Part shown: positions 497-58,041 of the stretch, one piece after another | Numbering within the stretch: the stretch's first letter is position 1 | Layout of the letters: the number at the start of each line of letters is the position of its first letter | DNA from: an uncultured Clostridia bacterium | GTDB lineage: Bacteria > Bacillota > Clostridia > TANB77 > CAG-508 | NCBI GenBank assembly: GCA_944390535.1 | Contig: CALXQV010000043.1 | Coordinates: forward strand, 7,056-71,055 | Reading direction: 5' to 3' | DNA: 64,000 nucleotides | Program-made: the position numbers and the translations under genes | Notes under the pieces: model-generated | Database searches by the model: none | What the model was told of the DNA's origin: nothing | Seen by the model: only the letters and a program-made list of their open reading frames with translations

Positions 497-1375
497 CTAA
501 TTAGCTATGAATCTATTTTTTATTATTTGTATAAACGTATTTAGATTATCGAATTTATTATCATTATTAATATATATTCCGAACTCAATTGGATTTATCG
601 TAAATTCTGTATCTAATATACATAAATTATTTTTTATTATTTCTTCAGAAACAAATTCTTTTGTAACTAAACCTATTCCTTTATTATTTTTTATAACTTC
701 AGCAATTGTTTTATAAGTAATATTTTTTATATTTTTTAAATCTTCATATTTACAATTTACTGATTCTAAAAAATTACGAGATGTTTCCGATGTTTGTCTT
801 GGCATATATATAGTAACATTTTTGATATCTTTTAATGTGACTTTTTTATTTTTCCATTTAGAATCTCCACTTGCTATTAGAATATCATTCCAATATCCCA
901 ATTTTAAAAATTTTATATTTTTGCTATGATTTTTTGCTTTTATTTTTTTTGAAAAAATAATGTCTAATTCTTTATTTTTTAACTCTGAAATCATCTGTTC
1001 ATTTTCGTGATTTATTACATTTATTTTAGATTTATTCTGCTTTATATAATATTCGCTTATACATTCACTAAAAATTGTATTTAATATTGTTGAATGAATA
1101 CCTAAATTAATATCTCTGATTCCACAATATTTAGATTCTATGTTTATCAATAAATTAGTAGCTTCTTTTATATCTTGATATAAAGATTGGCCTTCTTTTG
1201 TTAATATTACTCCATGATTGCTTCTTCTTAACAACTTTACTTGTAACATATTTTCTAAATTTTTTATATGTTTAGTAACAGCTGGTTGCGTTAAATTTAA
1301 TTTTATACTTGCTTTCGTTATATTTTTTTCATTTGCTACTGTTAAAAATATTTTATATAATTCTAAATTTACCAT
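497..1375 (-). CDS. LysR family transcriptional regulator
   Basis: 292 aa. N-terminal HTH (ITKASIKLNLTQPAVTKHIKNLE) plus a substrate-binding-type C-terminal half, typical LysR length. Confidence 0.85.
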   Translation of the reverse strand: MVNLELYKIFLTVANEKNITKASIKLNLTQPAVTKHIKNLENMLQVKLLRRSNHGVILTKEGQSLYQDIKEATNLLINIESKYCGIRDINLGIHSTILNTIFSECISEYYIKQNKSKINVINHENEQMISELKNKELDIIFSKKIKAKNHSKNIKFLKLGYWNDILIASGDSKWKNKKVTLKDIKNVTIYMPRQTSETSRNFLESVNCKYEDLKNIKNITYKTIAEVIKNNKGIGLVTKEFVSEEIIKNNLCILDTEFTINPIEFGIYINNDNKFDNLNTFIQIIKNRFIAN

Positions 1376-1589
1376 TATTCTCTCTCCCTTTTCTTATATT
1401 ATCTTACATACAATTTTAGAAAAAAATTTGAATAAATTTCTATTGCCATCTCTTCCCTTTTTGGTTGATTTTAGCATATTTTTCTATAAAAATAAAGCAA
1501 TTCTATACTTTACAATGTAACTTGCTTTTTTAACCATTTAAATACTATTCTTAATTATTGCTATGCTTTCATCTCTTCTAATTCCTTTT

Positions 1590-1815
1590 ACTGGGTATAC
1601 TTTTGTTCAGTTGTATTCTCGTAATAAGGTGGTTAAGGCTTATGCTTGCAAGCAATGTGTTTTTATATATTAAAAAGTCAGCATGACTTTCTAATATATA
1701 AATAAGAACCTGACCCGACATAGCAATCGAAGATTGCAGTCGGGTACCCCAGAACCTTGTTGTCTAAGACAATAAAAATAGACATCATAAAATCAAATTT
1801 TTGGTGTCTATTTAT
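1590..1815. ncRNA. candidate structured small RNA next to tcdA (6S-like possibility, unproven)
   Basis: 440-nt non-coding gap with several stable hairpins: TATATATTA..AGTCA-GCA-TGACT..TAATATATA, CCCGAC..GCAATC-GAA-GATTGC..GTCGGG, and GCTTGCAAGC. ACTGGGTA can pair with TACCCCAG as a closing helix, and a terminator hairpin ends the region. Strand and identity are unresolved. Confidence 0.25.
1776..1813. terminator. hairpin terminator, usable in both directions (3' of tcdA)
   Basis: 12-bp stem AAATAGACATCA/TGGTGTCTATTT with T-rich tracts on both strands immediately after the stem. Confidence 0.6.
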
Positions 1816-1818
1816 TGT

Positions 1819-2511
1819 TTATTTTTTTATTATATCTTTAATCACTTCACCTGCTATTATCATGCCTGCAACAGATGGAACAAAAGAAATACTCCCTGGT
1901 GTTCTAGCCTCATTAGTATGTTTTATTGGTTCTTCTTTAGAATATAACACTTTTAAATCTTGTATATTTCTTTTTTTCAATTCTTTTCTCATCACTTTTG
2001 CAAGCGGACATACTGTTGTTTTATAAATATCTGTTATTTCAAATCTGGTGGGATCTAATTTATTCCCTGTTCCCATACAAGAAATAATTGGAACTGTTTC
2101 CTCTTTTGCTTTTTCAATTAGTTTTAATTTGGTTGTCACCGTATCTACTGCATCTACTACATAATCGATACCATGATGAATTAGCATCTCTTCTCCATTT
2201 GTCATGTCTTGTGGCATATACGTTTCTACATTTACTCTTGGATTGATAGACAAAATCCTTTCTTTCATACAGTTTACTTTCATTTTCCCTATATTCTCAA
2301 CTGTACCATGAATTTGTCTATTTAAGTTACTAGGAGAAATCACATCATTATCTACTAAAATGATATTTTCTACTCCTGCTCTTATTAATCCCTCTACTAC
2401 AAACGAACCCACACCACCTATGCCATATACCATCACCTTGCTATTTGCTAATTTTTGTAGGTTCTCTTTTCCTATTAATAACGCTGTTCTTGATTTCCAA
2501 TCTTCTTCCAT
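1819..2511 (-). CDS. tcdA: tRNA threonylcarbamoyladenosine dehydratase (ThiF/E1-like)
   Basis: 230 aa. Rossmann motif VMVYGIGGVGSFVVEGLIRAGV and NLNRQIH, typical of TcdA/CsdL (YrvM). Confidence 0.85.
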   Translation of the reverse strand: MEEDWKSRTALLIGKENLQKLANSKVMVYGIGGVGSFVVEGLIRAGVENIILVDNDVISPSNLNRQIHGTVENIGKMKVNCMKERILSINPRVNVETYMPQDMTNGEEMLIHHGIDYVVDAVDTVTTKLKLIEKAKEETVPIISCMGTGNKLDPTRFEITDIYKTTVCPLAKVMRKELKKRNIQDLKVLYSKEEPIKHTNEARTPGSISFVPSVAGMIIAGEVIKDIIKK

Positions 2512-2525
2512 CTGCTTCTTCTTTC

Positions 2526-3389
2526 TTATTCTTTATTTTGTAATTGTGAAAGTTTATTAAATAACTTTTCACTATATTGTTTTTGTAAAAATAATCTTGC
2601 GACTTTTTTTACAATTTGCATATTAGCTATACTTCCGTCTTTAAACTCTATTCTAAGCTTATAGCTAATCAAACCTTTTTTTAATTTTTTTACTTGTATA
2701 TCCTCAAATTTTACACTGAATCCATTTTTTATAGATTTACTACTTAATTTTGATAATTCAAAGAAATATAATTTTTCCTCACCAAAATACAAAATATATT
2801 GTATATAGTTTGATAATGAGAAATATCCATATAAGAAATACTCTTTCATTGTTGGCACCATTTGTGCTAATACATAATTTTCTTCTTTTAAATGATTTAA
2901 TTTTAAAAATTCTCTAACTGTTTCTCCATTAAATTTTCCTAAATTAAATTCTTTTATTTCTATTTTTTCTCCCTCAATAAATCCACTTGTATCTGTTTCT
3001 TCTACTGCCATATTTTCTTTCAATTTCGTAACTTCTTTTTTAGCTCTAAAAAATCCAATAACAGCTCCCACACCATATATGATTACTAATAAAATATTCA
3101 ATCTAAAATTGAAAAGGTAAATTACAATATATAATATGATATTTGTAATCATAAAATATCGATTAAATGTTTTTTTAAATAATACTTTTTTACTTCTTTT
3201 AGAAAGTTTACCCGCTATCATACCTCCTAATATAGGGGATAAAAACAGCATGATAAAGGTTGGGATATATGCTCCACTGGTGGCATATAAAACCATAATG
3301 GTAGCAATCATTAATAACTCTGTAAATACGATTAAAGATGCTCCATATCTTAATAAAAAAGAACTTTGTGTTGTTTCTATTGTACTCAA
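2526..3389 (-). CDS. membrane protein of unknown function (4 predicted TM helices plus a soluble C-terminal domain)
   Basis: 287-aa ORF with a hydrophobic N-terminal half and a charged C-terminal half. No family recognised. Confidence 0.6.
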   Translation of the reverse strand: MSTIETTQSSFLLRYGASLIVFTELLMIATIMVLYATSGAYIPTFIMLFLSPILGGMIAGKLSKRSKKVLFKKTFNRYFMITNIILYIVIYLFNFRLNILLVIIYGVGAVIGFFRAKKEVTKLKENMAVEETDTSGFIEGEKIEIKEFNLGKFNGETVREFLKLNHLKEENYVLAQMVPTMKEYFLYGYFSLSNYIQYILYFGEEKLYFFELSKLSSKSIKNGFSVKFEDIQVKKLKKGLISYKLRIEFKDGSIANMQIVKKVARLFLQKQYSEKLFNKLSQLQNKE

Positions 3390-3519
3390 CTCCTTTTTTG
3401 TTTTTTATCATTTTATACTATTCTAATTGCTTTGTAAATAGTTTTCTATATAACATTGATTATTCCACATTCCTATTATATAATGCATTTATTAAAACAT
3501 ACAAATAAAGGAGCTTTTC

Positions 3520-5124
3520 ATGTTAAGAATTCAAAATATAAAAATCAGGAAAAATCTATCTGAAAAAGAATTAATCGATTTTGTGCTTGATAAATATCAT
3601 ATTCATTCATCTGACATGTTAAAATGGAATATTTTTAAAAAGTCTATTGATGCTAGAAAAAAAGAAGATATCTTTTTCAATTATACGATTGATATAGAAG
3701 TAAAAGATGAATCCAAATACCCCCATATTTTAAAAGTCGAACTATCAGATATTGAACAAGATATAAAAAAACAGATTTCAATAAATGCTTTACATTCTTT
3801 AAAAGCTTGTCCTTCTCCTGTCATTGTTGGTGCAGGTCCAGCAGGCTTGTTTTGTGCTTTAACACTTGTACAACATGGTATATGTCCTACCATTGTCGAG
3901 CAAGGAAAAACAGTAGAAGATAGGCAAAAAGATGTAGATTCTTTTTTACATCACACCTGCTTAAATCCATTTTCTAATGTACAATTTGGTGAAGGTGGTG
4001 CTGGTACTTTTTCTGATGGAAAATTAACAACTGGAATTCATAACCCTTTATGTCAAAAGGTTTTAAAAGAATTTGTTCAATTTGGTGCACCTGAAGAAAT
4101 TTTATATGTATCCAAACCACATATTGGCACAGATAAATTAATTACGATTATTAGAAATATGAGAAATTATATATTATCAAAAGGTGGTAAATTTTATTTC
4201 AATACAAAATTTATCAATTTTACTACCAAAAATAATCGTATCTGTTCTGTACAATTAGAAAACTTAGAAAACCATACAATCTTTGAACTGTCTACCAATC
4301 ATCTTATCTTAGCAATTGGTCATAGTTCTAGAGATACTTTTGCGTTATTACATCAAAAGGGAATTGAAATGGAAAAGAAAAATTTTTCTGTGGGTGTTAG
4401 AATTGAACACCTACAAGAACATATTAATATAGCACAATATGGGAAACATCCAAAATTACAATTACCTCCTGCTGAATATAAATTAGCATATCATTCTCCA
4501 AGCGGTCGTTCTTGTTATACATTTTGTATGTGTCCTGGAGGAACAGTCATTGCTTCTTCTAGTGAAAAAAATACCATTGTTACGAATGGTATGAGTACCT
4601 ATTTACGAAATGGTAAAAATGCAAATTCTGCTTTATTGGTAAATGTAACACCTGAAGACTTTACAGATACTTCTCCTTTGGCTGGTATTTACTTCCAAAA
4701 AGATTTAGAAGAAAAAGCATTTGTATTAGGTGGTTCAAATTATCATGCACCTATACAAAGAGTAGAAGACTTTTTAAATAATCAAACATCTTCTACTCTG
4801 GGGTTGGTCACACCTTCTTATTTACCTGGAACCACTTTATCAAACTTAAATGATATTCTTCCAAATTTTGTTTCTACTACATTAAAGGAAGGTATCCTAT
4901 ATTTTGATAAACGATTAAAAGGATTTGCTCACCCTGACAGTATTTTAACTGGTGTTGAAACGAGAAGTTCTTCTCCTGTAAAAATTCCTAGAAATGTCCA
5001 GTTTGTATCTAATATAGAAGGCATATATCCTTGTGGAGAAGGTGCAGGATATGCAGGCGGTATCATGTCTGCCGCAGTTGATGGAATTAAGACAAGTTTA
5101 TCTATTTTAGGGGCTATGAATTAG
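3520..5124 (+). CDS. NAD(P)/FAD-dependent oxidoreductase (COG2509-type uncharacterised FAD dehydrogenase)
   Basis: 534 aa. Dinucleotide-binding motif VIVGAGPAGLFCAL and C-terminal GEGAGYAGGI. SD AAAGGAG precedes the ATG. Confidence 0.8.
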   Translation: MLRIQNIKIRKNLSEKELIDFVLDKYHIHSSDMLKWNIFKKSIDARKKEDIFFNYTIDIEVKDESKYPHILKVELSDIEQDIKKQISINALHSLKACPSPVIVGAGPAGLFCALTLVQHGICPTIVEQGKTVEDRQKDVDSFLHHTCLNPFSNVQFGEGGAGTFSDGKLTTGIHNPLCQKVLKEFVQFGAPEEILYVSKPHIGTDKLITIIRNMRNYILSKGGKFYFNTKFINFTTKNNRICSVQLENLENHTIFELSTNHLILAIGHSSRDTFALLHQKGIEMEKKNFSVGVRIEHLQEHINIAQYGKHPKLQLPPAEYKLAYHSPSGRSCYTFCMCPGGTVIASSSEKNTIVTNGMSTYLRNGKNANSALLVNVTPEDFTDTSPLAGIYFQKDLEEKAFVLGGSNYHAPIQRVEDFLNNQTSSTLGLVTPSYLPGTTLSNLNDILPNFVSTTLKEGILYFDKRLKGFAHPDSILTGVETRSSSPVKIPRNVQFVSNIEGIYPCGEGAGYAGGIMSAAVDGIKTSLSILGAMN

Positions 5125-7204: not shown

Positions 7205-7347
7205 CTTTTCTCTTTTTTATATAGTATTGCCTATTTATGCTATTTTTAATCAGATGTTCTCATGTAGTTTTATCATTTTTCTAATTTTGGAATTTGTTAA
7301 TCAATAATTCATAAATTCAAGAATAACTCTTTACATATATTTCGAAA

Positions 7348-7526
7348 AAACATCCCACTTCTCCTATGTATATATATTATATTTTAAGCGGGTTTCGTGG
7401 GGACCGACACACTACATACTCTTATTAAATCAGTGACAGTCCCGTGGGAACTGATTTGATTAGAGTATGTAAAGTGTTGGGATAGCGAAAAATATAATAT
7501 ATATACATAGGAAAATTGGGATGTTT
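7348..7526. repeat. long-hairpin intergenic repeat, family B, copy 1
   Basis: The ~139-nt core (7368-7506) is near-identical to 57876-58014. It is flanked by copy-specific 20-nt inverted arms (7348-7367 / 7507-7526, 2 mismatches). Confidence 0.8.
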
Positions 7527-7581
7527 AAATGGTGAATGTAACTAGAAATTCATGTACAAAAAAATAGATTCAAAATTGAAT

Positions 7582-10933: not shown

Positions 10934-12163
10934 CTACAAATATAAAATTGGGCGGAAAGAAATATAATTACCAGTAGAAGTATCGATAGTTTTATTATCA
11001 TGACGGTAGCTCGGGTTACCACCACTAAAGGCATAACAACCACCTCTAGTAGCATAAGGATAATAAGTACTACAAGTACTTTCTGTCACCCATTCTATAC
11101 AATTTCCTGCTATATCATATATATTTAACTGTATATCTCCTGATAATCCTGTTGTTCGTTTTGATGAACTAATTAATTTTCCATCTCGTCTCGAATAATT
11201 ACTTTCTCCATATTTCTGTATAAACAAGATTGCTGTATCCCATGCATAACTATTCATTAAGTCACTATTAATTTCTTCATACAAATCTTGACAGGCAGTT
11301 GCTGCATTTGGTTGATTAATCATCGTCCACGCGCTTTTATTATACTTACTTTCTGCTTTGCCACTGCTCTCTCTGCTTGCTTCAAATCTTGCGATATAAT
11401 ATCCTTCATTTTTCCTAACACTTTCTATAAATCCCTCTATGTCTTTTGCTATTGTATTAGCATATCTACTTTCAACATGTTCTTCTGGCGTTTCTTCTTT
11501 GAAAAATCCTGAATATTCTGTTGGTATCCCTGATGAGTCAAAATCATATCTTCCTAATAATATCTTTTTTTCTCCATTTATTCCTTTTACATCATCGATT
11601 GTTCCATCTTCTCCTAAAATCCCATCTACTGGTATCCATACATATTGGTTTCCACCCTTTGTATTATTTAAGTCATCTCCTTCTACATCTGATATAACTA
11701 ATCCTCCTGTTACAGTACTTCCTTCTACATGGTAAAATCCTTCTGGTATTCTTACTCCTTCTACTACTGTACCTAAGTTTTCTTCTATTGTTATACTTCC
11801 ATCACTATTTATTGTATATTCTCTCTTTGATTCAAATGTTACTGTTAAGGTTTCATCTCCATTATCTATTACTGTTGTATTGTATCCATTCATTTTTAAT
11901 TCTTCTTGTAACTCTGTAGCACTTGCTCCTTTTCCTTCATTATCCACCATCACTCCATTATATGCTATTTTGATTGCTTCTTTTTCTTCTTCTATCTGTG
12001 TTTTATCACTTGCTTGGCTAGCCTTTGTTAAAATCCCATTGTCTCCTGTTAATGTAGCAATTGTTACCCCTGCTAAAATTAACAACACAATCATTGTGAT
12101 AACCAATGCAATTAAAGTAATACCATTATTCCTTTTCTTTTCCTTATTTTTTAGTTTTTTCAT
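10934..12163 (-). CDS. exported protein with pilin-like N-terminal segment and FGE/SUMF1-type (C-type lectin fold) C-terminal domain
   Basis: 409 aa. N-terminus NGITLIALVITMIVLLILAGVTIATLTGDNGILTKAS. C-terminal motifs YIARFEAS, NIYDIAGNCIEWVTE, RGG and ISFRPILY resemble formylglycine-generating-enzyme family signatures. Paralog of 37589-39313. Confidence 0.8.
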   Translation of the reverse strand: MKKLKNKEKKRNNGITLIALVITMIVLLILAGVTIATLTGDNGILTKASQASDKTQIEEEKEAIKIAYNGVMVDNEGKGASATELQEELKMNGYNTTVIDNGDETLTVTFESKREYTINSDGSITIEENLGTVVEGVRIPEGFYHVEGSTVTGGLVISDVEGDDLNNTKGGNQYVWIPVDGILGEDGTIDDVKGINGEKKILLGRYDFDSSGIPTEYSGFFKEETPEEHVESRYANTIAKDIEGFIESVRKNEGYYIARFEASRESSGKAESKYNKSAWTMINQPNAATACQDLYEEINSDLMNSYAWDTAILFIQKYGESNYSRRDGKLISSSKRTTGLSGDIQLNIYDIAGNCIEWVTESTCSTYYPYATRGGCYAFSGGNPSYRHDNKTIDTSTGNYISFRPILYL

Positions 12164-12379
12164 TTTTTATCCCCTCTCTTTTGTTTATTTTTTGCTTTAT
12201 TAATTTAGTATTTACTTAGTAAACTTATTTATGCTTAGTTTTTTAACTTTTAAAATACTTTTTATTTTCTTATATTTCTTTAATAATTAATATTTACATT
12301 CTTATCTTCATATTAAAATATGATGGCTTTTTCTTTTTTCAATCTTGCACTATTTACAAAAGTAGTTTTTGTTATTTTT

Positions 12380-12408
12380 ATTCTATTCGTTTTATTGAAT
12401 TAAGTCAA
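12380..12408 (-). promoter_or_regulatory. candidate fixed sigma-A promoter facing 10934-12163, outside the invertible segment
   Basis: Minus strand: TTGACT (12408-12403), 17-nt spacer, TAGAAT (12385-12380). The same hexamers and spacing occur at the paralogous locus. Confidence 0.4.
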
Positions 12409-12441
12409 TATATTGTCGTATTATATTTCTTATATTTTGCT

Positions 12442-12649
12442 TAGATTTCACTACTCTAAGAATTTATACATTCTTCAAAAACCTCTAAACTTCACGTTTT
12501 TCTTGAGTTATATGAATTAAAAAATCTTCTAATTTTCAAATTTTATTAATAGATTTTTACAGGAATTTTTTTGCATAATTTTATTGACTTTTATATATTT
12601 TATTGTTAGAATCGAATTATGAAAATGCTTCTTAGAGTAGTGAAATCTA
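12442..12649. promoter_or_regulatory. putative invertible DNA switch (inverton) bounded by 21-bp perfect inverted repeats
   Basis: TAGATTTCACTACTCTAAGAA (12442-12462) and its exact reverse complement (12629-12649) flank 166 bp that contain a strong promoter. The architecture is duplicated at 39497-39697. Confidence 0.65.
12584..12612 (+). promoter_or_regulatory. near-consensus extended -10 promoter inside the invertible segment, facing away from 10934-12163
   Basis: TTGACT (12584-12589), 17-nt spacer, TGtTAGAAT (12604-12612). Confidence 0.6.
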
Positions 12650-12738
12650 GGAATATTTTCTCTAAATTAGTGAATTAAAAATTTCTATTTTGCTGTTTTT
12701 TATAGAAAAAAGGAAACTAATAAAGTTCCCTTAATACA

Positions 12739-14010
12739 TTACATACCTGTTACTGGTAAAATTCTTTTACTCGTTACTTCTTTTTTATCTACTATTTTTT
12801 CAATTTCTGGTTTTTCTTCTTTATGATTGTTTACTGTCACTGTTATTTCTTCATTTAAGTTTATATCTATTTCAATTAATTCTTCATAAAGTTCATATCC
12901 ACCAATTGTTTTGGTTTCTTTTATATAATATTTACCTGGAATTATATTTTCTATTTCTATTTTTCCATTCTCATCTGTTTCTAAATTTGTATACATTACA
13001 TTTTTATTTTCATCTAATAGCTGAAATTCTACACCCTGTAATTTTTCTTCTGTTTCTTCATCTTCTTTTATTATGATTAATTTTGTTTTATTTTTATTAT
13101 AATAGTCTTTTATTTCTCCTGTTCCATCTTCATAAGTTGATCCAGTTAATGCATAATCTTGTAAATTACCATTTGGGGCTTTTCCATACAAAATTGGTTT
13201 TGTCTCTATCTTTGTTTCTATATGAATTTGAATCGTTTTATCTTCTATCATTTGTTTTATAGGAATTAATAATTTAAAAGTTTCATTTGCATGAAATTCT
13301 TGTTTTTCTTTATTGGTTTCATCTGTTATTTTAACACCTTCAATTTCTTGACCATTTTCATCTGTTACATATACGTTATAATTGTCTATATTTGTTTTAC
13401 TATTTACTTTATACGTTTTGGATACATATTGTGTTTCTAATGTATCTTGTTCCCAATATTCTTCTAATTTTTGAATATCTACTTTATTAGAAATCTGTAC
13501 TTCAGTAGAGCTATTCGCTGCATTTACAATTTGATACATGGCATTTAATGTTCTTTGTCCTGCTTCTCCAATTGGTGCATAATCACTTAATTGGTTTCCA
13601 TGAATATAGCTATAAATCGCATGTTTTGTTGCTGTAAATGCTTCTTTTTCATTAGCAACCTCTAATTTTCCTATAGATTTATATGGATACCCATTTGTTA
13701 CAATTTTCCAAAGCATAACATCTTGTATTGCTTTCTCAATAGAAACTGTATAATTACCTTCCTCTGCTCCAGGTTTTGTTTTATCTAGACAATACGCTGG
13801 ATATCGTTTTCCTTCATGTTCATATTCAATATAGGTAGTTTTTACCACTATTCCTTTATAGGTAAGTAAGTTTCCACAATCTCCTACTGCATATACATTT
13901 ACTGTATTTAAATTAGTTGCTATAACTGAATTTGTAAAGTTTAAGAAGTTCAATGTCATAATAGCAAATATGACACATATGATTTTTAGTCCCTTTTTTA
14001 TTTTATTCAA
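12739..14010 (-). CDS. surface adhesin/pilin-like protein: thioester (TQXA-type) domain plus Cna-B/SpaA-type domain, LPVTG at C-terminus
   Basis: 423 aa. Signal peptide, then the AYCLDKTKPGA, NGYP and FTATKHAIY motifs (TED-like), the Cna-B-like block LQGVEFQLLDENKNV...GKYYIKETKTIGGYEL, and an ending of ILPVTGM-stop. Confidence 0.75.
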   Translation of the reverse strand: MNKIKKGLKIICVIFAIMTLNFLNFTNSVIATNLNTVNVYAVGDCGNLLTYKGIVVKTTYIEYEHEGKRYPAYCLDKTKPGAEEGNYTVSIEKAIQDVMLWKIVTNGYPYKSIGKLEVANEKEAFTATKHAIYSYIHGNQLSDYAPIGEAGQRTLNAMYQIVNAANSSTEVQISNKVDIQKLEEYWEQDTLETQYVSKTYKVNSKTNIDNYNVYVTDENGQEIEGVKITDETNKEKQEFHANETFKLLIPIKQMIEDKTIQIHIETKIETKPILYGKAPNGNLQDYALTGSTYEDGTGEIKDYYNKNKTKLIIIKEDEETEEKLQGVEFQLLDENKNVMYTNLETDENGKIEIENIIPGKYYIKETKTIGGYELYEELIEIDINLNEEITVTVNNHKEEKPEIEKIVDKKEVTSKRILPVTGM

Positions 14011-14029
14011 ATACTTTTCACTTTCCTTT

Positions 14030-14566
14030 CTATTTTTCTTTTTCTACGCCTTGTATACATCTTCTGTACTCTGGTTCATTTTCTACACAAGTAATTAGTG
14101 TAATTGTATTTTCTTCTGTTGGCTCTAAAAGACTCCAATCTGTATTTTTTATTATCTCATGTTTTGTTACTATATAGATTTTTTCTATATTTCCATAGGT
14201 ATATGTAATTTCATCTCCTTCTTGTAATTCTTTTAATCGCCCAAAATAGTTATTTTTATATCCTCTATTATGTGCTGCTAAACATATATTTCCTAAATTT
14301 TTAGAAGATTCTTCAAAATGTCCAACATAATCTTCTAAGATTTTTTGGCTAGTTCCTTCTTGTATAGGTGCCTTTAAAGCTATTTTATCTATTTGAATAT
14401 ACCAGTTATCTAACGTATTTACTTCATCTAGATTGCTAGTATTATCTTCTTCTAAATTTTTTGAATCAATTGTTTGATTTTGAATTAAATTTTCTTGTGT
14501 TGTAAAATCGACTTTAAATTCTATTGTTTGTAATCTTAAAATGTCACTATGAAATAAACTATTCAT
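14030..14566 (-). CDS. sortase (cysteine transpeptidase); true start probably upstream at a non-ATG codon
   Basis: 178 aa from the first ATG. Catalytic His (LAAHN) and Cys (TLITC), with a conserved Arg near the C-terminus. The membrane anchor is encoded in frame upstream (see finding). Confidence 0.85.
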   Translation of the reverse strand: MNSLFHSDILRLQTIEFKVDFTTQENLIQNQTIDSKNLEEDNTSNLDEVNTLDNWYIQIDKIALKAPIQEGTSQKILEDYVGHFEESSKNLGNICLAAHNRGYKNNYFGRLKELQEGDEITYTYGNIEKIYIVTKHEIIKNTDWSLLEPTEENTITLITCVENEPEYRRCIQGVEKEK

Positions 14567-31890: not shown

Positions 31891-32646
31891 ATGGAAAATA
31901 ATAAAAACTCTCAAAATAATGAAAAAGATATAAGATATTATGCAAAAGTACATTCAATAGAGACCTTTGGTGCAGTTGATGGTCCAGGAATTCGCTTTGT
32001 ATTATTTCTTCAAGGATGTCATTTACAATGTAAATATTGCCACAATCGTGACACTTGGGATATGAAAGAAGGAACATATCAATCTGTTGATGATATTTAT
32101 AAAATGATTTTAAAATACAAAAATTACATTACCCCAAATGGTGGTGTTACTGTTTCTGGTGGAGAACCTTTATTACAAGTCAAATTTTTAATAGAATTAT
32201 TTACAAAGTTAAAAAAGAAAAAAATTCACACTTGTATTGATACCTCAGGAATGGTAGCATTAACAGAAGATGTCAAGCAGTTACTAGGTCTAACTGATTT
32301 AGTTTTATTAGATATTAAACATATTGATAGTGGAAAGTGTAAAAATTTAGTAGGATTTGATAACAAATTAGAATTAGAATTTGCAAAATACTTAAGTGAC
32401 AATCATATACCAATATGGATTAGACAAGTATTAGTTCCTGGCTATACAGATGATGAAAAAGATTTACGAACATTAAAAAAATTTATTTCTACTTTAGATA
32501 CAGTTCAAAAAATAGAAATTTTGCCATATCACAGTATTGGTAAATATAAATGGACAAAATTAGGATTGAAATATGATTTAGAAACCATTACAGATGCTAC
32601 GAGTGATGATGTAAAACGTGCAAAAGCAATTTTAGGAATTAGCTAA
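31891..32646 (+). CDS. pflA: pyruvate formate-lyase activating enzyme (radical SAM)
   Basis: 251 aa. Contains the radical-SAM CxxxCxxC cluster motif (CHLQCKYCHN) and the GGVTVSGGEP motif. Lies immediately downstream of pflB. Confidence 0.95.
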   Translation: MENNKNSQNNEKDIRYYAKVHSIETFGAVDGPGIRFVLFLQGCHLQCKYCHNRDTWDMKEGTYQSVDDIYKMILKYKNYITPNGGVTVSGGEPLLQVKFLIELFTKLKKKKIHTCIDTSGMVALTEDVKQLLGLTDLVLLDIKHIDSGKCKNLVGFDNKLELEFAKYLSDNHIPIWIRQVLVPGYTDDEKDLRTLKKFISTLDTVQKIEILPYHSIGKYKWTKLGLKYDLETITDATSDDVKRAKAILGIS

Positions 32647-32755
32647 AAGGGAATTTGGGGACGGACTCATTTTTCCCTTTTTTATATTCTATATTTTTTG
32701 AATTTTTACTGATATCAAAAAAGGGAAAAATGAGTCCGTCCCCAAATTCCCTTTT
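32645..32755. terminator. perfect 39-bp-arm palindrome between convergent genes (back-to-back terminators)
   Basis: AAAAGGGAATTTGGGGACGGACTCATTTTTCCCTTTTTT (32645-32683) and its exact reverse complement (32717-32755). Each arm alone folds as AAAGGGA..TCCCTTT followed by a T run. Confidence 0.75.
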
Positions 32756-32757
32756 TG

Positions 32758-33693
32758 TTACATTCCTAACAATTTTAATTCAACATTTTCCATTTTGTAT
32801 TTTCCTTGAACTAGCTTAAATTCTACTAACGTGTCTTCTAATGTTTCTTTATTTTGTCTTAAATCTGTTGTAAAATATAACTTGATTTGTGAAATTTCTA
32901 GATTATTTTTTACAATTTCTTTAAATGTCTCTGCCATATGTTTTTCATCTTCACATATTAAAATTAATTGTGGCATTGCGACAAACCCTGAGTCTCCTAG
33001 CACATAGTTTTCATAGAATTCTTTATATAGTCTCATTCTTTCTACAAGTTTTTTCTCCCAATCTGGCTCTCTTCTGATAACTTCAAAAACAAATTGAATT
33101 GATTTTTTATTCTTTGTAAGTTTTACTGCCCCACCACTTGCTTTAAATAGCTTTCCTGAAATTTTGGCCGTGATGGCTGGTTTTACGATATAACTATCAA
33201 ATGCTTTTACTTTTCTTAAATATGCAATTAATGTTTGGTTTCCAGCTAGTCTCTTTTTTATCATTGGTACGGGTTTTGTATTATCAGATGGTTGCCACTT
33301 ACAATCAATTTCTTTAGAGTTTAATAAATATTTTCCCATCTTTTCTAAACAATAAATTCTATAGATTCCTTTACCTTCATCAGAAGTAAAGTAATATCTT
33401 GTTAATATTTTAGATTTTACTAGTTGGTCTAGTTTGTTATTTAATTTATCTTGTGACTTAGGGTCAATTCCTTTGATTTCTAGCATTTGATACAATTGTC
33501 TTGATGTGATAAATTCAAATTCATTCACTAAGTCTAAAATTGCAAAATGGATTTCATTGATATGTCCTATATTAATCTTATGTACGATTTGGTTCATTGA
33601 CACATATCCATCTTTTCCGTCGAAAGTTTTAATTTCACCTTCTCTAATAGCAAATGGAGATACTTGTGCCTTGATTTCATTATCTTTTACCAT
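32758..33693 (-). CDS. hypothetical protein, possible winged-helix N-terminal region (weak resemblance to replication-relaxation family)
   Basis: Start set at the ATG preceded by AGGAGGGA (MVKDNEIK). The motif AILDLVNEFEFITSRQLYQML resembles the wHTH of PF13814-type proteins. This is a low-confidence product call. Confidence 0.55.
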   Translation of the reverse strand: MVKDNEIKAQVSPFAIREGEIKTFDGKDGYVSMNQIVHKINIGHINEIHFAILDLVNEFEFITSRQLYQMLEIKGIDPKSQDKLNNKLDQLVKSKILTRYYFTSDEGKGIYRIYCLEKMGKYLLNSKEIDCKWQPSDNTKPVPMIKKRLAGNQTLIAYLRKVKAFDSYIVKPAITAKISGKLFKASGGAVKLTKNKKSIQFVFEVIRREPDWEKKLVERMRLYKEFYENYVLGDSGFVAMPQLILICEDEKHMAETFKEIVKNNLEISQIKLYFTTDLRQNKETLEDTLVEFKLVQGKYKMENVELKLLGM

Positions 33694-33748
33694 TTTTATT
33701 TTCCCTCCTATAAATTTAGAATTATCTATATTTTTTATAATAAACCAC

Positions 33749-34546
33749 TTATTGTTCAATTAACAATTTTACTTTTTTCTTTTCTTTATCTATTTTTTTG
33801 ATATATACATCTACTTTTTGCCCATATTGATATCCTTCTTCATATTCTGCCATTCCCACTAAGTTTGGTGTTAATTCGATAAAAATACCATTTTTATTTT
33901 TTTCTGTTTCTCGAATAATTCCTCGTACTTTCATTCCAGAAGTGAAATTTTTAATGTTTTCTTCCCATGTTCCTAAGGTCTCTTTATATGACAAACTAAC
34001 TTTTCCTGTATATCTATCTATACATTTTACCACAACATTTACTTTTTGTCCAATTTTTAGCCTTTCATAGGGTGTTTTGATTCTCGCTACAGATAAATCT
34101 TCTATATGTGCTAGTCCAACAACACCGCCTCCAATTTCAATAAATGCTCCATATGGTCTAATATTTTTTACAATTCCTGTAACATTTTCACCAACTTGCA
34201 TATCTTTTTTTATATATTGCAGAGTTTCTTGTTGAACACTTTTTCTAGATAGAAATACTGTATTAGCATTTTCAATGTTTTCTATTTTAAATTGTACATA
34301 TTTATGCACTTTTCCTGTACATAATCTTTCATCTGGCAAGCCATCTTGACTATTTTCTACTTCACTTCTTGGGATAATTCCCTCTATGTTATTCCCTAAT
34401 TCAATATGTAAGTTATATTTTTCATCACAGCTTTTTACAATTCCTTGAATGGTTTTATTTTCTTGTTGATATTTTTGTATCTTTTGTAAGTTTAGATTTT
34501 CTATCTCTTCATTCCAACCTTCTGGCACAAATCGAAATGTATTCAT
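33749..34546 (-). CDS. S1 RNA-binding domain protein (three S1-like repeats)
   Basis: 265 aa. Central canonical S1 motif GENVTGIVKNIRPYGAFIEIGGGVVGLAHIEDL. Confidence 0.8.
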   Translation of the reverse strand: MNTFRFVPEGWNEEIENLNLQKIQKYQQENKTIQGIVKSCDEKYNLHIELGNNIEGIIPRSEVENSQDGLPDERLCTGKVHKYVQFKIENIENANTVFLSRKSVQQETLQYIKKDMQVGENVTGIVKNIRPYGAFIEIGGGVVGLAHIEDLSVARIKTPYERLKIGQKVNVVVKCIDRYTGKVSLSYKETLGTWEENIKNFTSGMKVRGIIRETEKNKNGIFIELTPNLVGMAEYEEGYQYGQKVDVYIKKIDKEKKKVKLLIEQ

Positions 34547-37588: not shown

Positions 37589-39313
37589 TTATCTTATTGT
37601 GAGACATATACGAAATCCGTTGCCACTAGGACTACCATTATATCCTGCAGTAGTAGCAAAGGTAAATAAACCTACATTCGTATTTTTATAATATCCTCCT
37701 CGTTGAAAAAACGGAAATGCATCTCCATCTTTAATACCTACAAATCGAGATAATACTGAATACCATGAACCAGTTTCACTTTCTGATGTTGATGTCTCTG
37801 TTGTTGCATCTCCAAATATTCTATTTATATTTACATTATAATTATCTGTTGAACTATTTGAAGTCGCCATCTGATACACTGTTGCGTATTTTGTGCTTTC
37901 TTTTTTATTATTTGTTTTATTATCTATTGAGGCAAATGAATTCCCATATGTCTGAGTAGAATCTGCAACATAGCTTGCTATATATTCATATGCCCCTCCT
38001 ACCATATCATATATTCCATATTCATTTCCTGTTGTGCTTTGTAATTTGTTTTTTGATGGTGTTGCTCCACTTGCTCCTCCAGTATAATAACCACTACTAC
38101 TATTTTTTGTTATTGCTGTTCCATTTCTTCCATATTTACTTTCTGTTAAATATGCTACTACTCCCCATTCACTATTTTTCATCAGATGGCTCTCTTTATC
38201 TCTATCATAGTCATATCCTTTGGTATACATTGTTCCTATTGTTGTACTCCTATAACTGGTTACTCCTGGTATTGATTTTATTGTTGTACCACTTTGGCTC
38301 ACCTCATATTTAGCTACCCATATTCCTTCTAATTTACTATCCCATTCTCCTTGTGAAAATCCTGTTAAAGTACCATTTTCAAATACTGGATGTACTCTTA
38401 ATTTATTTTTTCCTACTGCTACACCTGTTACAGGTTCTCCTAAATCACTTGGTGTTTTTCCTTCTATATTTACAATTCCTCTTGCATCACTATATCCTAC
38501 AATTCCTTCTGTTTTTGTGTTATCTGCTCTATATGCTTCTTTATGTTCTGGCGTATCAAAATATATAATTCTATATGCATATCTTGGTATCCATACCCAA
38601 TAACTACCATCTTTTGTTTTTGCATTTGCCCAATGGCTTGTTCCTCCTGATGCTGTTGTTCCAGCTTGTACTGTATATTGATACCAGTTATTTTCATCAA
38701 ATTCTGCTTCTCCTTCTTCTATTTCTGTTCCATCTTCTTCCCAATATACTTTTTTCATATCACTTGTCATTTTTGGCTCATTTGGTGTTGTTGCTATATC
38801 ATAACTTGTACCAGTTAAAAATTCTATCTCTATTAGCCCATTTGCTCTTGTAAAGGCAGGTTCTTTTGATACTTCTGGGGTTTTTTCTGGCTCTCTTATT
38901 GTATATTCTGTTACATTTCCCATTTTGTCTACAAAATAACTTCTCCCATTATCATAATTTTCTGTTATGGTTACAATGTATCCTTCCGTTCCCTCTTCAT
39001 TTGTTCCTGGCTCTACTATATATTTTCCATCAGTAAAATATTCTCCTAATTCTTTTTCCAAATTTTCTTGAATAACTTCATCTCCATCTGCTTTTGCTAG
39101 CGCTCCTAGCGCAGATAGCTCCACTTTTTCCTTTTCATCTGCTAGTTCTGTTTTCTCACTTGCTTCACTCGCTTTTGCTAATATTCCATTTTCCCCTGTT
39201 AGTGTTGCAATTGTTACGCCTGCTAATATAAGTAACACAATAATAGTTATGACTAATGCAATTAACGTAATCCCATTATCTATTTTACTTTTTTGTCTCT
39301 TTATTTTACTCAA
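37589..39313 (-). CDS. exported protein with pilin-like N-terminal segment and FGE/SUMF1-type C-terminal domain (paralog of 10934-12163)
   Basis: 574 aa, TTG start with a GGGGGA SD. N-terminus NGITLIALVITIIVLLILAGVTIATLTGENGILAKAS. C-terminal motifs WVAKYEVS, GIYDMVGGAYEYI, RGG and NGFRICL. Confidence 0.8.
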   Translation of the reverse strand: MSKIKRQKSKIDNGITLIALVITIIVLLILAGVTIATLTGENGILAKASEASEKTELADEKEKVELSALGALAKADGDEVIQENLEKELGEYFTDGKYIVEPGTNEEGTEGYIVTITENYDNGRSYFVDKMGNVTEYTIREPEKTPEVSKEPAFTRANGLIEIEFLTGTSYDIATTPNEPKMTSDMKKVYWEEDGTEIEEGEAEFDENNWYQYTVQAGTTASGGTSHWANAKTKDGSYWVWIPRYAYRIIYFDTPEHKEAYRADNTKTEGIVGYSDARGIVNIEGKTPSDLGEPVTGVAVGKNKLRVHPVFENGTLTGFSQGEWDSKLEGIWVAKYEVSQSGTTIKSIPGVTSYRSTTIGTMYTKGYDYDRDKESHLMKNSEWGVVAYLTESKYGRNGTAITKNSSSGYYTGGASGATPSKNKLQSTTGNEYGIYDMVGGAYEYIASYVADSTQTYGNSFASIDNKTNNKKESTKYATVYQMATSNSSTDNYNVNINRIFGDATTETSTSESETGSWYSVLSRFVGIKDGDAFPFFQRGGYYKNTNVGLFTFATTAGYNGSPSGNGFRICLTIR

Positions 39314-39431: not shown

Positions 39432-39460
39432 ATTCTACTTACTTTGTATAAATAAGTCAA
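39432..39460 (-). promoter_or_regulatory. candidate fixed sigma-A promoter facing 37589-39313, outside the invertible segment
   Basis: Minus strand: TTGACT (39460-39455), 17-nt spacer, TAGAAT (39437-39432). Confidence 0.4.
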
Positions 39461-39496
39461 TATATTGTCGTATTATATTTCCGCTTTTTTACTTGA

Positions 39497-39697
39497 ATTT
39501 CAATACTCTAGGAACATACAGTACTTTTCAAAACATTGGTATTTTAAGCTTATAAGGTTTTTACTATTTTAAAAACGCTTTTAATTCTTAAATTTTATAT
39601 ATGTTTTTTTCTTAATTTTTTTCGTATCTTTTTATTGACTTTATTAATCTATATTGTTAAAATTTAGATGTAAAAAATGTTCCTAGAGTATTGAAAT
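39497..39697. promoter_or_regulatory. putative invertible DNA switch (inverton) bounded by 21-bp perfect inverted repeats
   Basis: ATTTCAATACTCTAGGAACAT (39497-39517) and its exact reverse complement (39677-39697) flank 159 bp that contain a strong promoter. Confidence 0.65.
39635..39663 (+). promoter_or_regulatory. near-consensus extended -10 promoter inside the invertible segment, facing away from 37589-39313
   Basis: TTGACT (39635-39640), 17-nt spacer, TGtTAAAAT (39655-39663). Confidence 0.6.
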
Positions 39698-39802
39698 CTA
39701 CGAACATTTTTATTTTTTAATGTATTTGAACTATAAATTCTCTTTCTATTTTTAAGTCATTTTTTTATTTTTACCTAGTCGTATTCATAACAATTATTAG
39801 CA

Positions 39803-51863: not shown

Positions 51864-53126
51864 TTAGTTTTTATTTAGTATATTTTTTATTATATTTTTT
51901 GATGCTTCTCTTCCTGAATATGCAGCCCATGCAACGGTTCCTTTAACTCCTGCCAAATCTCCTCCTGCATAAATTTTAGAATTAGAAGTTTTAAATTCTT
52001 CATCAATTTCTATATTTCCCCATTTATTTAAGTTTAATCCTAAATCTTTTACATAGTCTTGTGGCCTTGAACCTAAAGCCATAATGATGTAGTCAACATC
52101 TACTTGATAATTACTATTTTCAATATTAACAGGAGATAATCTAGTTTCCCCTTCTTTTTGAACTAATTTTGTTTTAATTAATTCTACTTTTTCTACTTTT
52201 TGATTTCCAAATATTTTTACAATATTATTTTGGAAAGCAAATTGAATTCCTTCATTTTTAGCATCTTGTATCTCTTTCTTCTCTGCTGGCATTTGTTCTT
52301 CTGCTCTTCTATAAACTACTGTTACTTCTTTTGCTCCTAATTTATTAATCGTTCTAGCACAATCCATTGCCACATTTCCTCCACCAGTTACAATCACCTT
52401 TTTTCCTTTGTAGTCAGGATGTAAATTGTATTCTAGCAGTTCATTTCCGCCAAAAACACCTTCTAAATTTTCTCCTTCTACTCCCATTTTAGAAGAAACA
52501 TTGGCACCAATACTTAAAAATATAGCATCATATTCTTTTTCTATATCATCTAATGTAAAATCTTTTCCAAGTTCTTTATGATATTTTACTTCTATTCCCA
52601 AATCTAAAATATCTTTTACGGTATTTTCTACAATCTCTTTTGGTAGTCTAAAGCTAGGAATTCCAAACATTAATAATCCACCTAAATAATCATATTTTTC
52701 ATATATCGTAACTTGTATTCCTTCTTTTGCTAGAAAAGCAGCACAAGTTAATCCTGCTGGTCCTCCTCCAATAATCGCTACTTTTTTATTCTTTTTAGAC
52801 ACTTTATCATAGCAATCTGATAAATGATATCCTAGTTCATGAACTTTGTCAAACGTATATGCTTCTAATTCTCCTATGGAAACAGGTTCTCCTTTTATTC
52901 CCCTTACACAAGCTCCTTGGCATTGCTTTTCATGTGGACATATTCTTCCACATATTCCTTGTAAGACAGTTGTTTTAGATAGAATTTTATAAGCTTCCAA
53001 ATATTCTTCTTTTTTTAATGCTTGTATAAAAGAAGGAATATCATTTTGCAATGGGCATCCTTTTAAAGAACATGGTTTTACTTTACAATTTAAACAATAA
53101 TTTATCTTTTCTTCTATTTCTTTCAC
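51864..53126 (-). CDS. glutamate synthase small-subunit-like NAD(P)H oxidoreductase (GltD/NfnB family)
   Basis: 420 aa. N-terminal Fe-S Cys clusters (CLNCKVKPC, CGRICPHEKQCQGAC) and two dinucleotide folds (VAIIGGGPAGLTCA, VIVTGGGNVAMDCA). Confidence 0.85.
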   Translation of the reverse strand: MKEIEEKINYCLNCKVKPCSLKGCPLQNDIPSFIQALKKEEYLEAYKILSKTTVLQGICGRICPHEKQCQGACVRGIKGEPVSIGELEAYTFDKVHELGYHLSDCYDKVSKKNKKVAIIGGGPAGLTCAAFLAKEGIQVTIYEKYDYLGGLLMFGIPSFRLPKEIVENTVKDILDLGIEVKYHKELGKDFTLDDIEKEYDAIFLSIGANVSSKMGVEGENLEGVFGGNELLEYNLHPDYKGKKVIVTGGGNVAMDCARTINKLGAKEVTVVYRRAEEQMPAEKKEIQDAKNEGIQFAFQNNIVKIFGNQKVEKVELIKTKLVQKEGETRLSPVNIENSNYQVDVDYIIMALGSRPQDYVKDLGLNLNKWGNIEIDEEFKTSNSKIYAGGDLAGVKGTVAWAAYSGREASKNIIKNILNKN

Positions 53127-53262
53127 TTTATTTATTCCTCTTTTCCTTGTTTTCTAGTAAACTTTTAGAAATTCAATCCTAGGTTCCCTATATCGTATTT
53201 TGAAATACAGTATAAGCAACCACATATTACAAAACAAAAAACTTCATATTGTTTCATATTTA

Positions 53263-53590
53263 AGAACAATAGCGGGCTTTCTTAAACATTTTCTCTATTC
53301 ATAATATTTTAAAGCCCGTGTTATTGTTCGTGTGCCAAATTTTACGTAAGTAAAATTTGTGTGCAATCGTTAGAGCGAAGCGATGTTCTTGAATAGGAAA
53401 AAACGATTTTTCCTATTCAAGAACAAATCTCGCTTCGCGAGAACTTTTCTCTACTTTTCTAATTTAACTATATATCTTTAAGTTCTCAAAGAAGCGTAAA
53501 GATTTGTCGACGCGAAAAATTGCAAGGCAATTTTTCTGTGCAATGTTGTTTTTTTATTGAATAGGAAAAAGTGATTTTTCCTATTCAATA
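53263..53590. repeat. multi-hairpin intergenic repeat, family A, full-length copy
   Basis: ~328 bp, collinear with 23078-23400. The hairpins are preserved by compensatory substitutions. Confidence 0.85.
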
Positions 53591-53704
53591 AAAAGAATTG
53601 ATACAATCAATCCTTCTTTAAATATTTTACATTGTTTACAATATTAAGTCAATAAAAATGACTTATCGGTATCAATATTTAGAGATTTATCTAGTTATAG
53701 AAAA

Positions 53705-54259
53705 TCAAAAATTCTCTATAGCATCCACTACTTTTTGTAAATCCTTAATAAAATCTATTTTTTTAGTCTCATCTCTTAACAGTGCTGCTGGGTGCCAAGT
53801 AGGCATATAGTGTATCCCTTTCTTTTCTAGCCATTTTCCCCTAGAAGCTGTAATTCCATATTCCTTTCCTAAAATATTTTTCAATGCCACACTTCCTAAC
53901 AACACAATAATCTTTGGCTGTACTAAAATTACCTGGTTTCTTAAATAATTCAAGCAAGCTGTTGCCTCATCTTCTTCTGGATTTCGGTTAGAAGGTGGTC
54001 TACATTTTACAACATTCGCAATATACACTTCTTCTCTATTAATCCCCAATGTCTCAAATGCTAAATCCATTAATTTTCCTGCTCTTCCTACAAAAGGCTC
54101 TCCTAATCTATCTTCATCTGCTCCTGGTCCTTCTCCAATAAACATTAATTTTGCCTGTTTATTTCCTGTTCCAAATACAATATGTTGTCTTGCTTTGCAT
54201 AATTTACATTTATTACAATCTTTAATTGATTCTTCTAATTCTTCCCATGTTTCAAACAT
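53705..54259 (-). CDS. uracil-DNA glycosylase, family 4
   Basis: 184 aa. Fe-S Cys residues and motifs GEGPGADED and GEPFVGRAG. Confidence 0.9.
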   Translation of the reverse strand: MFETWEELEESIKDCNKCKLCKARQHIVFGTGNKQAKLMFIGEGPGADEDRLGEPFVGRAGKLMDLAFETLGINREEVYIANVVKCRPPSNRNPEEDEATACLNYLRNQVILVQPKIIVLLGSVALKNILGKEYGITASRGKWLEKKGIHYMPTWHPAALLRDETKKIDFIKDLQKVVDAIENF

Positions 54260-57848: not shown

Positions 57849-58041
57849 TTTCAGTTCAGGGGGGATTTTGCGGAGGTATATATATTATATTTTAAGCGGG
57901 TTTCGGGGAGACCTACACGCTACATACTCTTATTCAATCAGTGACAGTCCCGTGGGAGCTGATTGAATTAGAGTATGTAAAGTGTTGGGATAGTGAAAAA
58001 TATAATATATATACCTCCGCAAAATCCCCCCTGAACTGAAA
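57849..58041. repeat. long-hairpin intergenic repeat, family B, copy 2
   Basis: The core 57876-58014 matches 7368-7506. The outer 27-nt arms (57849-57875 / 58015-58041) are perfectly complementary and unrelated to those of copy 1. Confidence 0.85.

Follow-up and report, generated by a model that had tools for sequence, protein, structure and literature searches.

Two putative invertible promoter switches with an orientation-dependent hairpin upstream of pilin-like protein genes in an uncultured Clostridia bacterium

Does a short, promoter-bearing segment enclosed by perfect inverted repeats upstream of a pilin-like gene in an uncultured Clostridia bacterium invert, and what would its inversion do to that gene? 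The segment lies in a stretch of 64,000 nt (the window; TANB77; CAG-508; assembly GCA_944390535.1, contig CALXQV010000043.1, positions 7,056-71,055), and a preliminary description made from the sequence alone had read it as an invertible promoter captured facing away from the gene that it could serve. We call this gene A and its surroundings locus A; a second copy of the arrangement, locus B, stands before a paralogous gene B. In our assessment both sites are probably site-specific recombination switches (invertons), in which inversion would redirect a strong promoter (P2) and dissolve a terminator-like hairpin, with a fixed promoter-like sequence (P1) remaining aimed at the gene.

Invertible promoters are a main route for surface variation in gut bacteria and, to our knowledge, nearly all that have been characterized come from Bacteroidota, Enterobacteria and C. 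difficile. The putative switch family documented here belongs to uncultured low-GC Clostridia, is present in both orientations in public assemblies, and sits before members of a large unnamed family of pilin-like modular surface proteins. The features that deserve attention are a predicted terminator embedded in the recombination site and the two-promoter layout.

Inverted repeats and the two orientations of the segment

The perfect 21-bp inverted repeats reported for locus A in the preliminary description, with 166 bp between them, are found exactly as described, and so is the second copy of the layout, with its shared core, at 39497-39697 before the paralogous gene; there the arms are likewise 21 nt long and the spacing is 159 nt (Table 1). 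At both loci the arms are 100% complementary. A census of perfect inverted repeats (arms of at least 14 nt, gap 30-1000) returned eight pairs in the window against 1.5 in Markov-1 shuffles, and because the longest repeat in 100 such shuffles was 17 nt, the 21-nt arms are not a chance palindrome, as had been argued. The shared core, ATTTCA[C/A]TACTCTA[A/G]GAA, occurs in the window at four sites only, those of the two repeat pairs, even when three mismatches are allowed.

Each site reads (T)TCTTAGA, then 9 nt, then TCTAAGAA, with a centre of the form TTTCA(A/C)TAC. This asymmetric centre is TTTCACTAC in locus A and TTTCAATAC in locus B and in three loci from other genomes (L007-L009, below); it is identical between both arms of each of these pairs and differs between loci (C versus A), as would be expected if strands are exchanged in the central region and homology is required there. 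Positions in the arms may differ within one pair, for example in L006, and in a further element (L022) the first base of the centre is unlike between its two arms. The arm-centre-arm layout probably resembles the core site of a tyrosine recombinase.

Public contigs encoding exactly the same proteins as the window were retrieved for comparison of orientation, which can be classified in 14 copies in total. The window orientation is found in 12 of these: the two loci of the window, locus A in five further assemblies (L001, L002, L003, L013 and L030, the last a 98% ortholog), locus B in two (L005 and L006), and L007, L008 and L009. The two flipped copies come from two different loci and two species. 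In one of them (L004; ENA ERZ28614620, scaffold_21030), which carries gene A, the gene-proximal flank is continuous with the promoter end of the segment. The contig starts 33 nt inside the element and continues ...TTATTGTTAGAATCGAATTATGAAAATGC / TTCTTAGAGTAGTGAAATCTA / AGCAAAATATAAG..., so that the -10 end of P2 abuts this flank; over its first 100 nt the contig agrees exactly with the window flipped in silico and not with the unflipped one. The other (L022; ERZ16268096, from a related species) contains a complete flipped element with P2 aimed at the gene. Both contigs bear out the inversion that had been proposed: the two orientations of the segment exist in nature, the window orientation being far commoner, and the segment would be expected to switch reversibly within one population.

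In the sample that yielded L004, a contig with the upstream adhesin gene (L016) stops 32 nt short of the distal repeat, and since both contigs end there the assembly is broken at both sides of the switch. The break in L004 fits a graph branch at k=55 (33 + 21 + 1 = 55); the assembler is not known and this is a hint only. Such switches break metagenome assemblies at exactly these genes, which matters for reading gene content or expression from metagenome-assembled genomes (MAGs). A third contig is ambiguous. This is L010 (ERZ1643249, 1818 nt, low coverage), in which distal-type flanks, inverted relative to each other, enclose the element at 253-455; the arms (1-187 and 522-708) show 96% complementarity and take in the 3' end of a glycosyltransferase-rubredoxin gene. 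Either the assembler folded back a mixture of orientations or strains, or there is a genuine inverted duplication of larger size. Searches of JGI metagenomes gave no match to the proximal-junction pattern and, with a relaxed repeat-pair pattern, only L010 and an unrelated sequence (L011); a scan of IMG/VR gave no matches, and look-ups by neighboring genes found no further flipped copies.

A scan for further inverted pairs of the core, covering one genome per species in 185,579 species, added three elements, all in uncultured Clostridia/Eubacteriales MAGs (L007, L008 and L009); the repeat-promoter-repeat arrangement is thus conserved at related loci in three other MAGs. The gene downstream of L008 encodes a 717-aa protein with the same N-terminus as proteins A and B followed by PARCEL/DUF285 repeats, that of L009 a 338-aa protein with the same N-terminus, and the L007 contig ends before the gene side is reached. 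Aligned in the sense of the gene, with L022 added to make a comparison of six loci, these elements share a module of about 290 bp, beyond which the leaders are not alignable. It begins with a distal flank ending in AAAAAxxTTC(C/T)TAG, followed by the repeat and an AT-rich interior that is poorly conserved except for P2; then come the second repeat, an A-rich tract, a block of the form GAAATAxAATACGAC...ATTGACTTAATTC, and a -10 box TA(G/A)AAT. Wherever the gene side is visible the module stands at a fixed distance upstream of one gene family, and on the distal side most loci have only the 3' end of an unrelated gene. In L007, 260 nt separate the distal repeat from the start of a nonribosomal peptide synthetase (NRPS)-like gene (760-4989, 1,409 aa), which lies on the strand faced by P2 as captured; this switch could toggle between two genes if the hairpin leaks. 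No repeat pair was found upstream of distant members of the N-terminal family (L017-L021 and L024; six members at three loci), and the paralog P0128 lies in an operon and has no switch, so the switch is not a property of the whole protein family.

A recombinase gene was not found within the window, where forty open reading frames (ORFs) were compared with Pfam and the rest were read by eye; the earlier conclusion that a trans-acting invertase would be needed stands. A tyrosine recombinase is encoded on the L008 contig (about 1-1260, minus strand; PF00589, E=5.7e-42 after repair of one frameshift, HSLRH|GFAT), about 1 kb beyond the regulated gene, and is directly followed by an IS91-type transposase (Zn_Tnp_IS91, E=3e-31). 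We did not adopt it as the invertase; paired as it is with this transposase, it is probably part of an IS91-like module.

Table 1. Positions of the features of loci A and B in the window, and of the flipped element L022 on its own contig (ERZ16268096)
Feature	Position	Strand	Basis or remark
Locus A, gene-proximal inverted repeat (putative recombination site)	12442-12462		Arms TAGA / TCTAAGAA around asymmetric centre TTTCACTAC
Locus A, invertible segment, 166 bp, P2 facing away from gene A	12463-12628		Flipped junction in L004
Locus A, gene-distal inverted repeat (putative recombination site)	12629-12649		Repeat search
Locus A, P2, predicted invertible promoter	12584-12612	+	TTGACT-17-(TG)TTAGAAT; 10/12 consensus match
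Locus A, P1, fixed promoter-like sequence outside the segment, aimed at gene A	12380-12408	-	TTGACT-17-TAGAAT; 10/12 match
Locus A, 29-nt block TAAGTCAATATATTGTCGTATTATATTTC, identical in A and B	12401-12429		Alignment columns 252-280 invariant
Locus A, predicted OFF-orientation terminator-like hairpin	12621-12660	+	Inner A-run, distal repeat and distal flank, U-rich 3' side; -12.6 to -13.9 kcal/mol
Locus A, intrinsic terminator of upstream adhesin gene, distal boundary of the switch module	12710-12732	-	Terminator scan
Gene A, 409 aa, pilin-like N-terminal anchor (NGITLIALVITMIVLLILAGV...), divergent FGE-sulfatase-like C-terminal domain	10934-12163	-	Sequence and homologs
Locus B, gene-proximal inverted repeat	39497-39517		Repeat search
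Locus B, invertible segment, 159 bp, P2 facing away from gene B	39518-39676		Repeat search
Locus B, gene-distal inverted repeat	39677-39697		Repeat search
Locus B, P2, predicted	39635-39663	+	TTGACT-17-(TG)TTAAAAT; 10/12 consensus match
Locus B, P1	39432-39460	-	TTGACT-17-TAGAAT; 10/12 match
Locus B, 29-nt block	39453-39481		Alignment columns 252-280 invariant
Locus B, predicted OFF-orientation hairpin, arms 39673-39687 / 39697-39711, then U-run	39673-39718	+	-12.2 kcal/mol, z -3.9
Gene B, 574 aa, paralog of A, C-terminus weakly FGE-like	37589-39313	-	PF03781 match below cut-off
L022, P2, tandem with P1 upstream of the gene	2049-2077	+	Promoter match
L022, P1	2146-2174	+	Promoter match
L022, downstream gene	2501-2821	+	Preceded by P2 and P1 in tandem

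Two predicted promoters and an orientation-dependent hairpin

The promoter that had been proposed inside the segment, with TTGACT, a 17-nt spacer and an extended -10 box on the plus strand, is recovered as a near-consensus match, and together with P1 it gives the two best sigma-70-like matches in both loci (in locus A the region 12100-12800 was scanned). P2 is the most conserved part of the interior across the six loci. The segment lies upstream of the minus-strand gene A, so P2 does point away from it. P1, which the preliminary description had overlooked, lies 33 nt beyond the proximal repeat, on the strand of the gene, and occupies the same aligned position in six of six loci. The label OFF for the captured state calls for an amendment: as P1 is unaffected by inversion, this state may be basal or separately regulated rather than silent, and the switch may be one between low and high rather than off and on. 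We keep OFF and ON below for P2 facing away from and toward the gene.

The 29-nt block overlaps the -35 box of P1 and the sequence upstream of it. It is identical at 29 of 29 positions between A and B although the two genes are old paralogs whose leaders beyond the block are not alignable, and it differs at several positions in other species; it may be an UP element or the binding site of a genome-specific trans factor. A palindrome over the P1 -35 box in A and B was considered as an operator and dropped, as it is not conserved in the other loci, and a small ORF beginning in the P2 transcript of locus A was dropped because it is not conserved in B. Rfam gave no match on the locus or on the whole window, and thus no riboswitch in the long leader.

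When transcripts from P2 are folded from the predicted start site, taken as 7 nt past the -10 box, the two orientations of the segment give different structures. In the OFF state all six loci form a stem of 14-15 bp with a 9-nt loop followed by a U-run (-12.2 to -18.2 kcal/mol, z -2.6 to -6.5). In the ON state, taken from in-silico flipped sequences or from L022 as found, there remain only the 6 bp of CUUAGA/UCUAAG followed by A's (-2.4 to -4.9 kcal/mol, z +0.45 to -1.4). At locus A, where the hairpin begins about 3 nt past the predicted P2 start site, the values are -12.6 kcal/mol (z -2.6) for OFF and -4.5 (z +0.1) for the flipped version, and at locus B the flipped version folds with -2.4 kcal/mol (z +0.45). 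A hairpin at the right repeat followed by a U-rich tract had been described before; it is real, and it is longer than was described (Table 1). The accompanying statement that the flank of the left repeat has no complement was incorrect, since a weak partner exists there (CTTAGA/TCTAAG, 6 bp), followed by A's and not U's.

Three stretches contribute to the stem: the segment with its terminal A-run and a further 2-3 nt, the repeat with its outer part, and the distal flank. Compensatory changes (UG...CA, CU...AG and UU...AA) are seen at two positions of the stem immediately beyond the repeat core, and pairing holds in 92.4% of alignment cells, whereas sliding the partner yields no more than 61%. 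The extended complementarity joins the P2 end of the segment with the distal flank only, and there is none at the other end of the segment; an RNA structure explains this one-sidedness better than binding of a recombinase or another protein does. The predicted terminator-like hairpin is gated by orientation and confined to one repeat junction, as in switches of the cwpV type. Its A's and U's lie on opposite sides, and in the OFF state it could thus end transcription arriving from the upstream gene as well.

Proposed mechanism, alternatives and known switches

We suggest that the segment of about 160 bp between the two copies of the site is inverted by a recombinase whose gene is located in another part of the genome; the anatomy of the sites makes a tyrosine recombinase probable. 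In the captured orientation the strong extended -10 promoter P2 would fire away from the pilin-like gene, and its transcript would fold from about +4 into the hairpin of 14-15 bp with its U-run, giving an RNA of only about 45 nt; the same hairpin, with A's and U's on opposite sides, should also be a barrier to transcripts reading through from the gene upstream. Once the segment is inverted, P2 would face the gene, the hairpin would be reduced to 6 bp followed by A's, and transcription would run through the proximal repeat, the conserved block and P1 into the gene. Like TSS4 at the cmr locus of C. difficile, P1 itself probably supplies expression that is basal or under separate control. The switch would thereby set the output of variable surface proteins, which have the pilin-like N-terminal anchor in common, to low or high.

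Several points weigh against this proposal. No gene for the enzyme of the inversion was found among those of the window. All promoter and terminator calls are consensus-match or energy predictions. The hairpin has only about three G-C pairs, was missed by a simple terminator scan because its loop is 9 nt long, and has a covariation score that was reached by 29 of 500 shuffles, which amounts to modest support. The orientations were read at the level of assembled contigs, and the flipped state appears in two contigs only, one of them partial (L004), with the third (L010) ambiguous. Finally, P1 equals P2 in consensus match and stays in place when the segment inverts, which may leave the gene expressed in either state.

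This last point leads to a reading in which the segment does invert but P1 is decisive and the gene is on in both states, the switch controlling instead the P2 hairpin RNA, or the insulation of the gene from upstream transcription and its read-through. P1 matches 10 of 12 consensus positions, holds its place in six loci and lies within a block that is identical at 29 of 29 positions in A and B; the OFF hairpin, with its A's and U's on opposite sides, could terminate in both directions; and in L007 P2 faces the strand of an NRPS gene situated beyond the switch. We nevertheless regard this as unlikely. P2, with its extended -10 box, is the most conserved part of the interior, the module stands at a fixed distance before one gene family with mostly the 3' end of an unrelated gene on its distal side, and at locus A the upstream gene already has a separate terminator. 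Moreover, the cmr locus also combines a fixed downstream promoter with an invertible one, and there the fixed start site TSS4 is inactive alone in reporter fusions and depends on an activator (PMC8844915).

Less likely still, by a little, is that there is no programmed phase variation, the flipped contigs being rare fixed inversions of strains by illegitimate recombination, or chimeras, and the repeats being kept as operator or terminator hairpins. The evidence is at the level of assemblies, only two of the 14 copies are flipped, one of these is a contig end, and L010 shows that odd fold-back assemblies occur here. Against this, De Bruijn k-mers are longer than the 21-nt repeat, so that the L004 junction (33 nt of interior, repeat and flank) needs real reads, and flipped copies occur at two loci in two species. 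RecA-type recombination on 21 bp is very inefficient; the asymmetric 9-nt centre is identical within pairs and the sites have the arm-centre-arm anatomy of recombinase sites; and the promoter and the orientation-gated hairpin are placed so that inversion makes functional sense. A short element with inverted-repeat flanks and multiple copies per genome might also call to mind a miniature inverted-repeat transposable element (MITE) whose terminal repeats enclose an outward promoter by chance. We consider this highly improbable: the element has no target-site duplication, the conserved module reaches past the repeats on both sides (into the distal flank, and into the proximal block with P1), its position before one gene family is the same wherever the downstream gene is visible, the core has four sites only in 64 kb with three further pairs only in 185,579 species, and what is seen is inversion in place and not presence or absence.

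Returning to the inverton reading, its nearest relatives can be compared part by part. In E. coli fimS and the invertons of the PhaseFinder type a short repeat-flanked segment carries the promoter of an adjacent surface-structure gene and inversion redirects it, as is predicted here, and both orientations occur in natural DNA, as they do here. The fimS switch is flanked by fimB and fimE, whereas here no recombinase gene adjoins, and its repeats are 9 bp long against 21 nt; the hairpin of the recombination site that the OFF transcript would meet, and the second, fixed promoter between switch and gene, are further differences predicted for the present loci. The Mpi-controlled promoters of Bacteroides fragilis are similar in that several unlinked loci share one repeat motif and serve variable surface targets with the recombinase encoded elsewhere, as it would be here. 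They differ in repeat motif, phylum and promoter type, and Mpi is a serine recombinase, whereas the site anatomy here, with arms around a 9-nt asymmetric centre, fits a tyrosine recombinase better.

Closer in host is the RecV-dependent switch of cmrRST in C. difficile, also in the Clostridia, where the recombinase acts in trans (as it would here), the inner promoter is active toward the genes only when ON, and the fixed start site TSS4 lies between switch and gene (PMC8844915). The present loci have no upstream riboswitch or promoter of the kind (no match in Rfam), target pilin-like surface proteins rather than a signaling system, and have a repeat sequence that is unrelated as far as can be told; the OFF-state terminator predicted here is not described for cmr. 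The cwpV switch of C. difficile has 21-bp repeats, a segment of about 195 bp, a terminator in one orientation at the junction of repeat and segment, and most cells OFF (PMC2784873). Its promoter lies upstream, outside the switch, and its terminator stops transcription directed at the gene; here the promoter is inside the segment, so the switch is not of the cwpV class, and the terminator would act on the outward transcript and possibly on upstream read-through. On this comparison the switch would unite an invertible promoter, as in fimS and cmr, with an orientation-gated terminator like that of cwpV. As a kind such switches are already known, for large surveys have catalogued thousands of invertons, including those of Clostridia groups linked to tyrosine recombinases (PMC11892184; PMC11602134); the repeat strings themselves were not found in the searchable literature.

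A wider version of this reading, which we put forward tentatively and hold to be rather doubtful, is that in one lineage of uncultured Clostridia a set of modular surface proteins forms a regulon controlled by a portable cassette about 290 bp long. The proposed regulon would share the pilin-like anchor with different C-terminal domains (FGE/lectin-like, PARCEL/LRR). In it the recombination site might double as an orientation-gated bidirectional terminator, so that the OFF state would give only a hairpin RNA of about 45 nt and insulate the gene, and the 29-nt block might dock a second trans factor, as the target of a regulator of P1 or as an accessory site of the recombinase, making these loci switches with two inputs.

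Putatively regulated proteins and other features of the window

Proteins A and B are 56% identical over their first 89 aa, which take the form NGITLIALVITxIVLLILAGVTIATLTGxNGIL. After the Gly the sequence reads ITLIALV, with Ala in place of Glu at +5 in both proteins, so that neither conforms to the type IV pilin pattern, and their N_methyl scores (17.9 bits, E=0.0022, for A and 10.9 bits for B) lie below the cut-off of 21.2. A profile of the family gave only weak matches to type IV pilins in PDB (PilE1, E=0.0095), and proteins A and B, used as queries against PDB sequences, retrieved practically nothing. For PF03781 (gathering threshold 23.3 bits) protein A has no match and protein B reaches 16.9 bits (E=0.005). 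In a sample of 32 aligned homologs, however, 15 match PF03781 (best E=7.3e-6) and 15 match N_methyl, and some database relatives carry a precomputed PF03781 match. The label of a pilin-like protein with an FGE domain, as first applied, is therefore reasonable for the family and falls below curated thresholds for A and B themselves.

The N-terminal module has no name and occurs widely, in 3,020 clusters at E<1e-5, and the family of the C-terminal domain of protein A comprises 1,399 clusters. A paper on a TANB77 'pilin' was rejected as a match for the N-terminal family, as it concerns a Tad-type cluster of another family. Many relatives of the module (database entries P0001-P0120; L022, L023) are short ORFs of 66-163 aa with odd C-termini or lie at contig ends, and in P0001 and P0003 the FGE-like part is resumed in a different frame. 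Frameshifts or assembly breaks thus seem to be frequent in genes with the module, the conserved coding module acting as a repeat.

Directly upstream of switch A, at 12739-14566, are a gene for an adhesin with a thioester domain (TED) and SpaA folds and a sortase gene; two different kinds of surface-protein genes are thus neighbors at this switch.

The window holds further hairpins and palindromes. Two copies of a long-hairpin palindromic element (7340-7535 and 57849-58041) each lie between a gene end and the next gene start. They share a core of about 135 nt (GTATATATATTATATTTT...AAAATATAATATATATAC) with a GC-richer palindromic interior, and their outer perfect arms are specific to each copy (24 nt, 7362-7385/7489-7512; 45 nt, 57849-57893/57997-58041); the element looks as if it sits in the loop of a pre-existing hairpin. 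Its RNA fold reaches -107 kcal/mol (z -19.9), and a comparison with Rfam gave no family, only spurious matches to microRNA precursors. At 32645-32755 a perfect stem of 39 bp with a 33-nt loop, an unusually long and bidirectional terminator-like hairpin, lies between the convergent genes 31891-32646 (plus strand, radical-SAM activase) and 32758-33759 (minus strand). One intergenic region (53126-53705) contains two copies of a hairpin TTGAATAGGAAAAA...TTTTTCCTATTCAA, at 53389-53420 and 53557-53588, and a similar hairpin, TATAGGAAAAA...TTTTTCCTATA, flanks the switch in L010.

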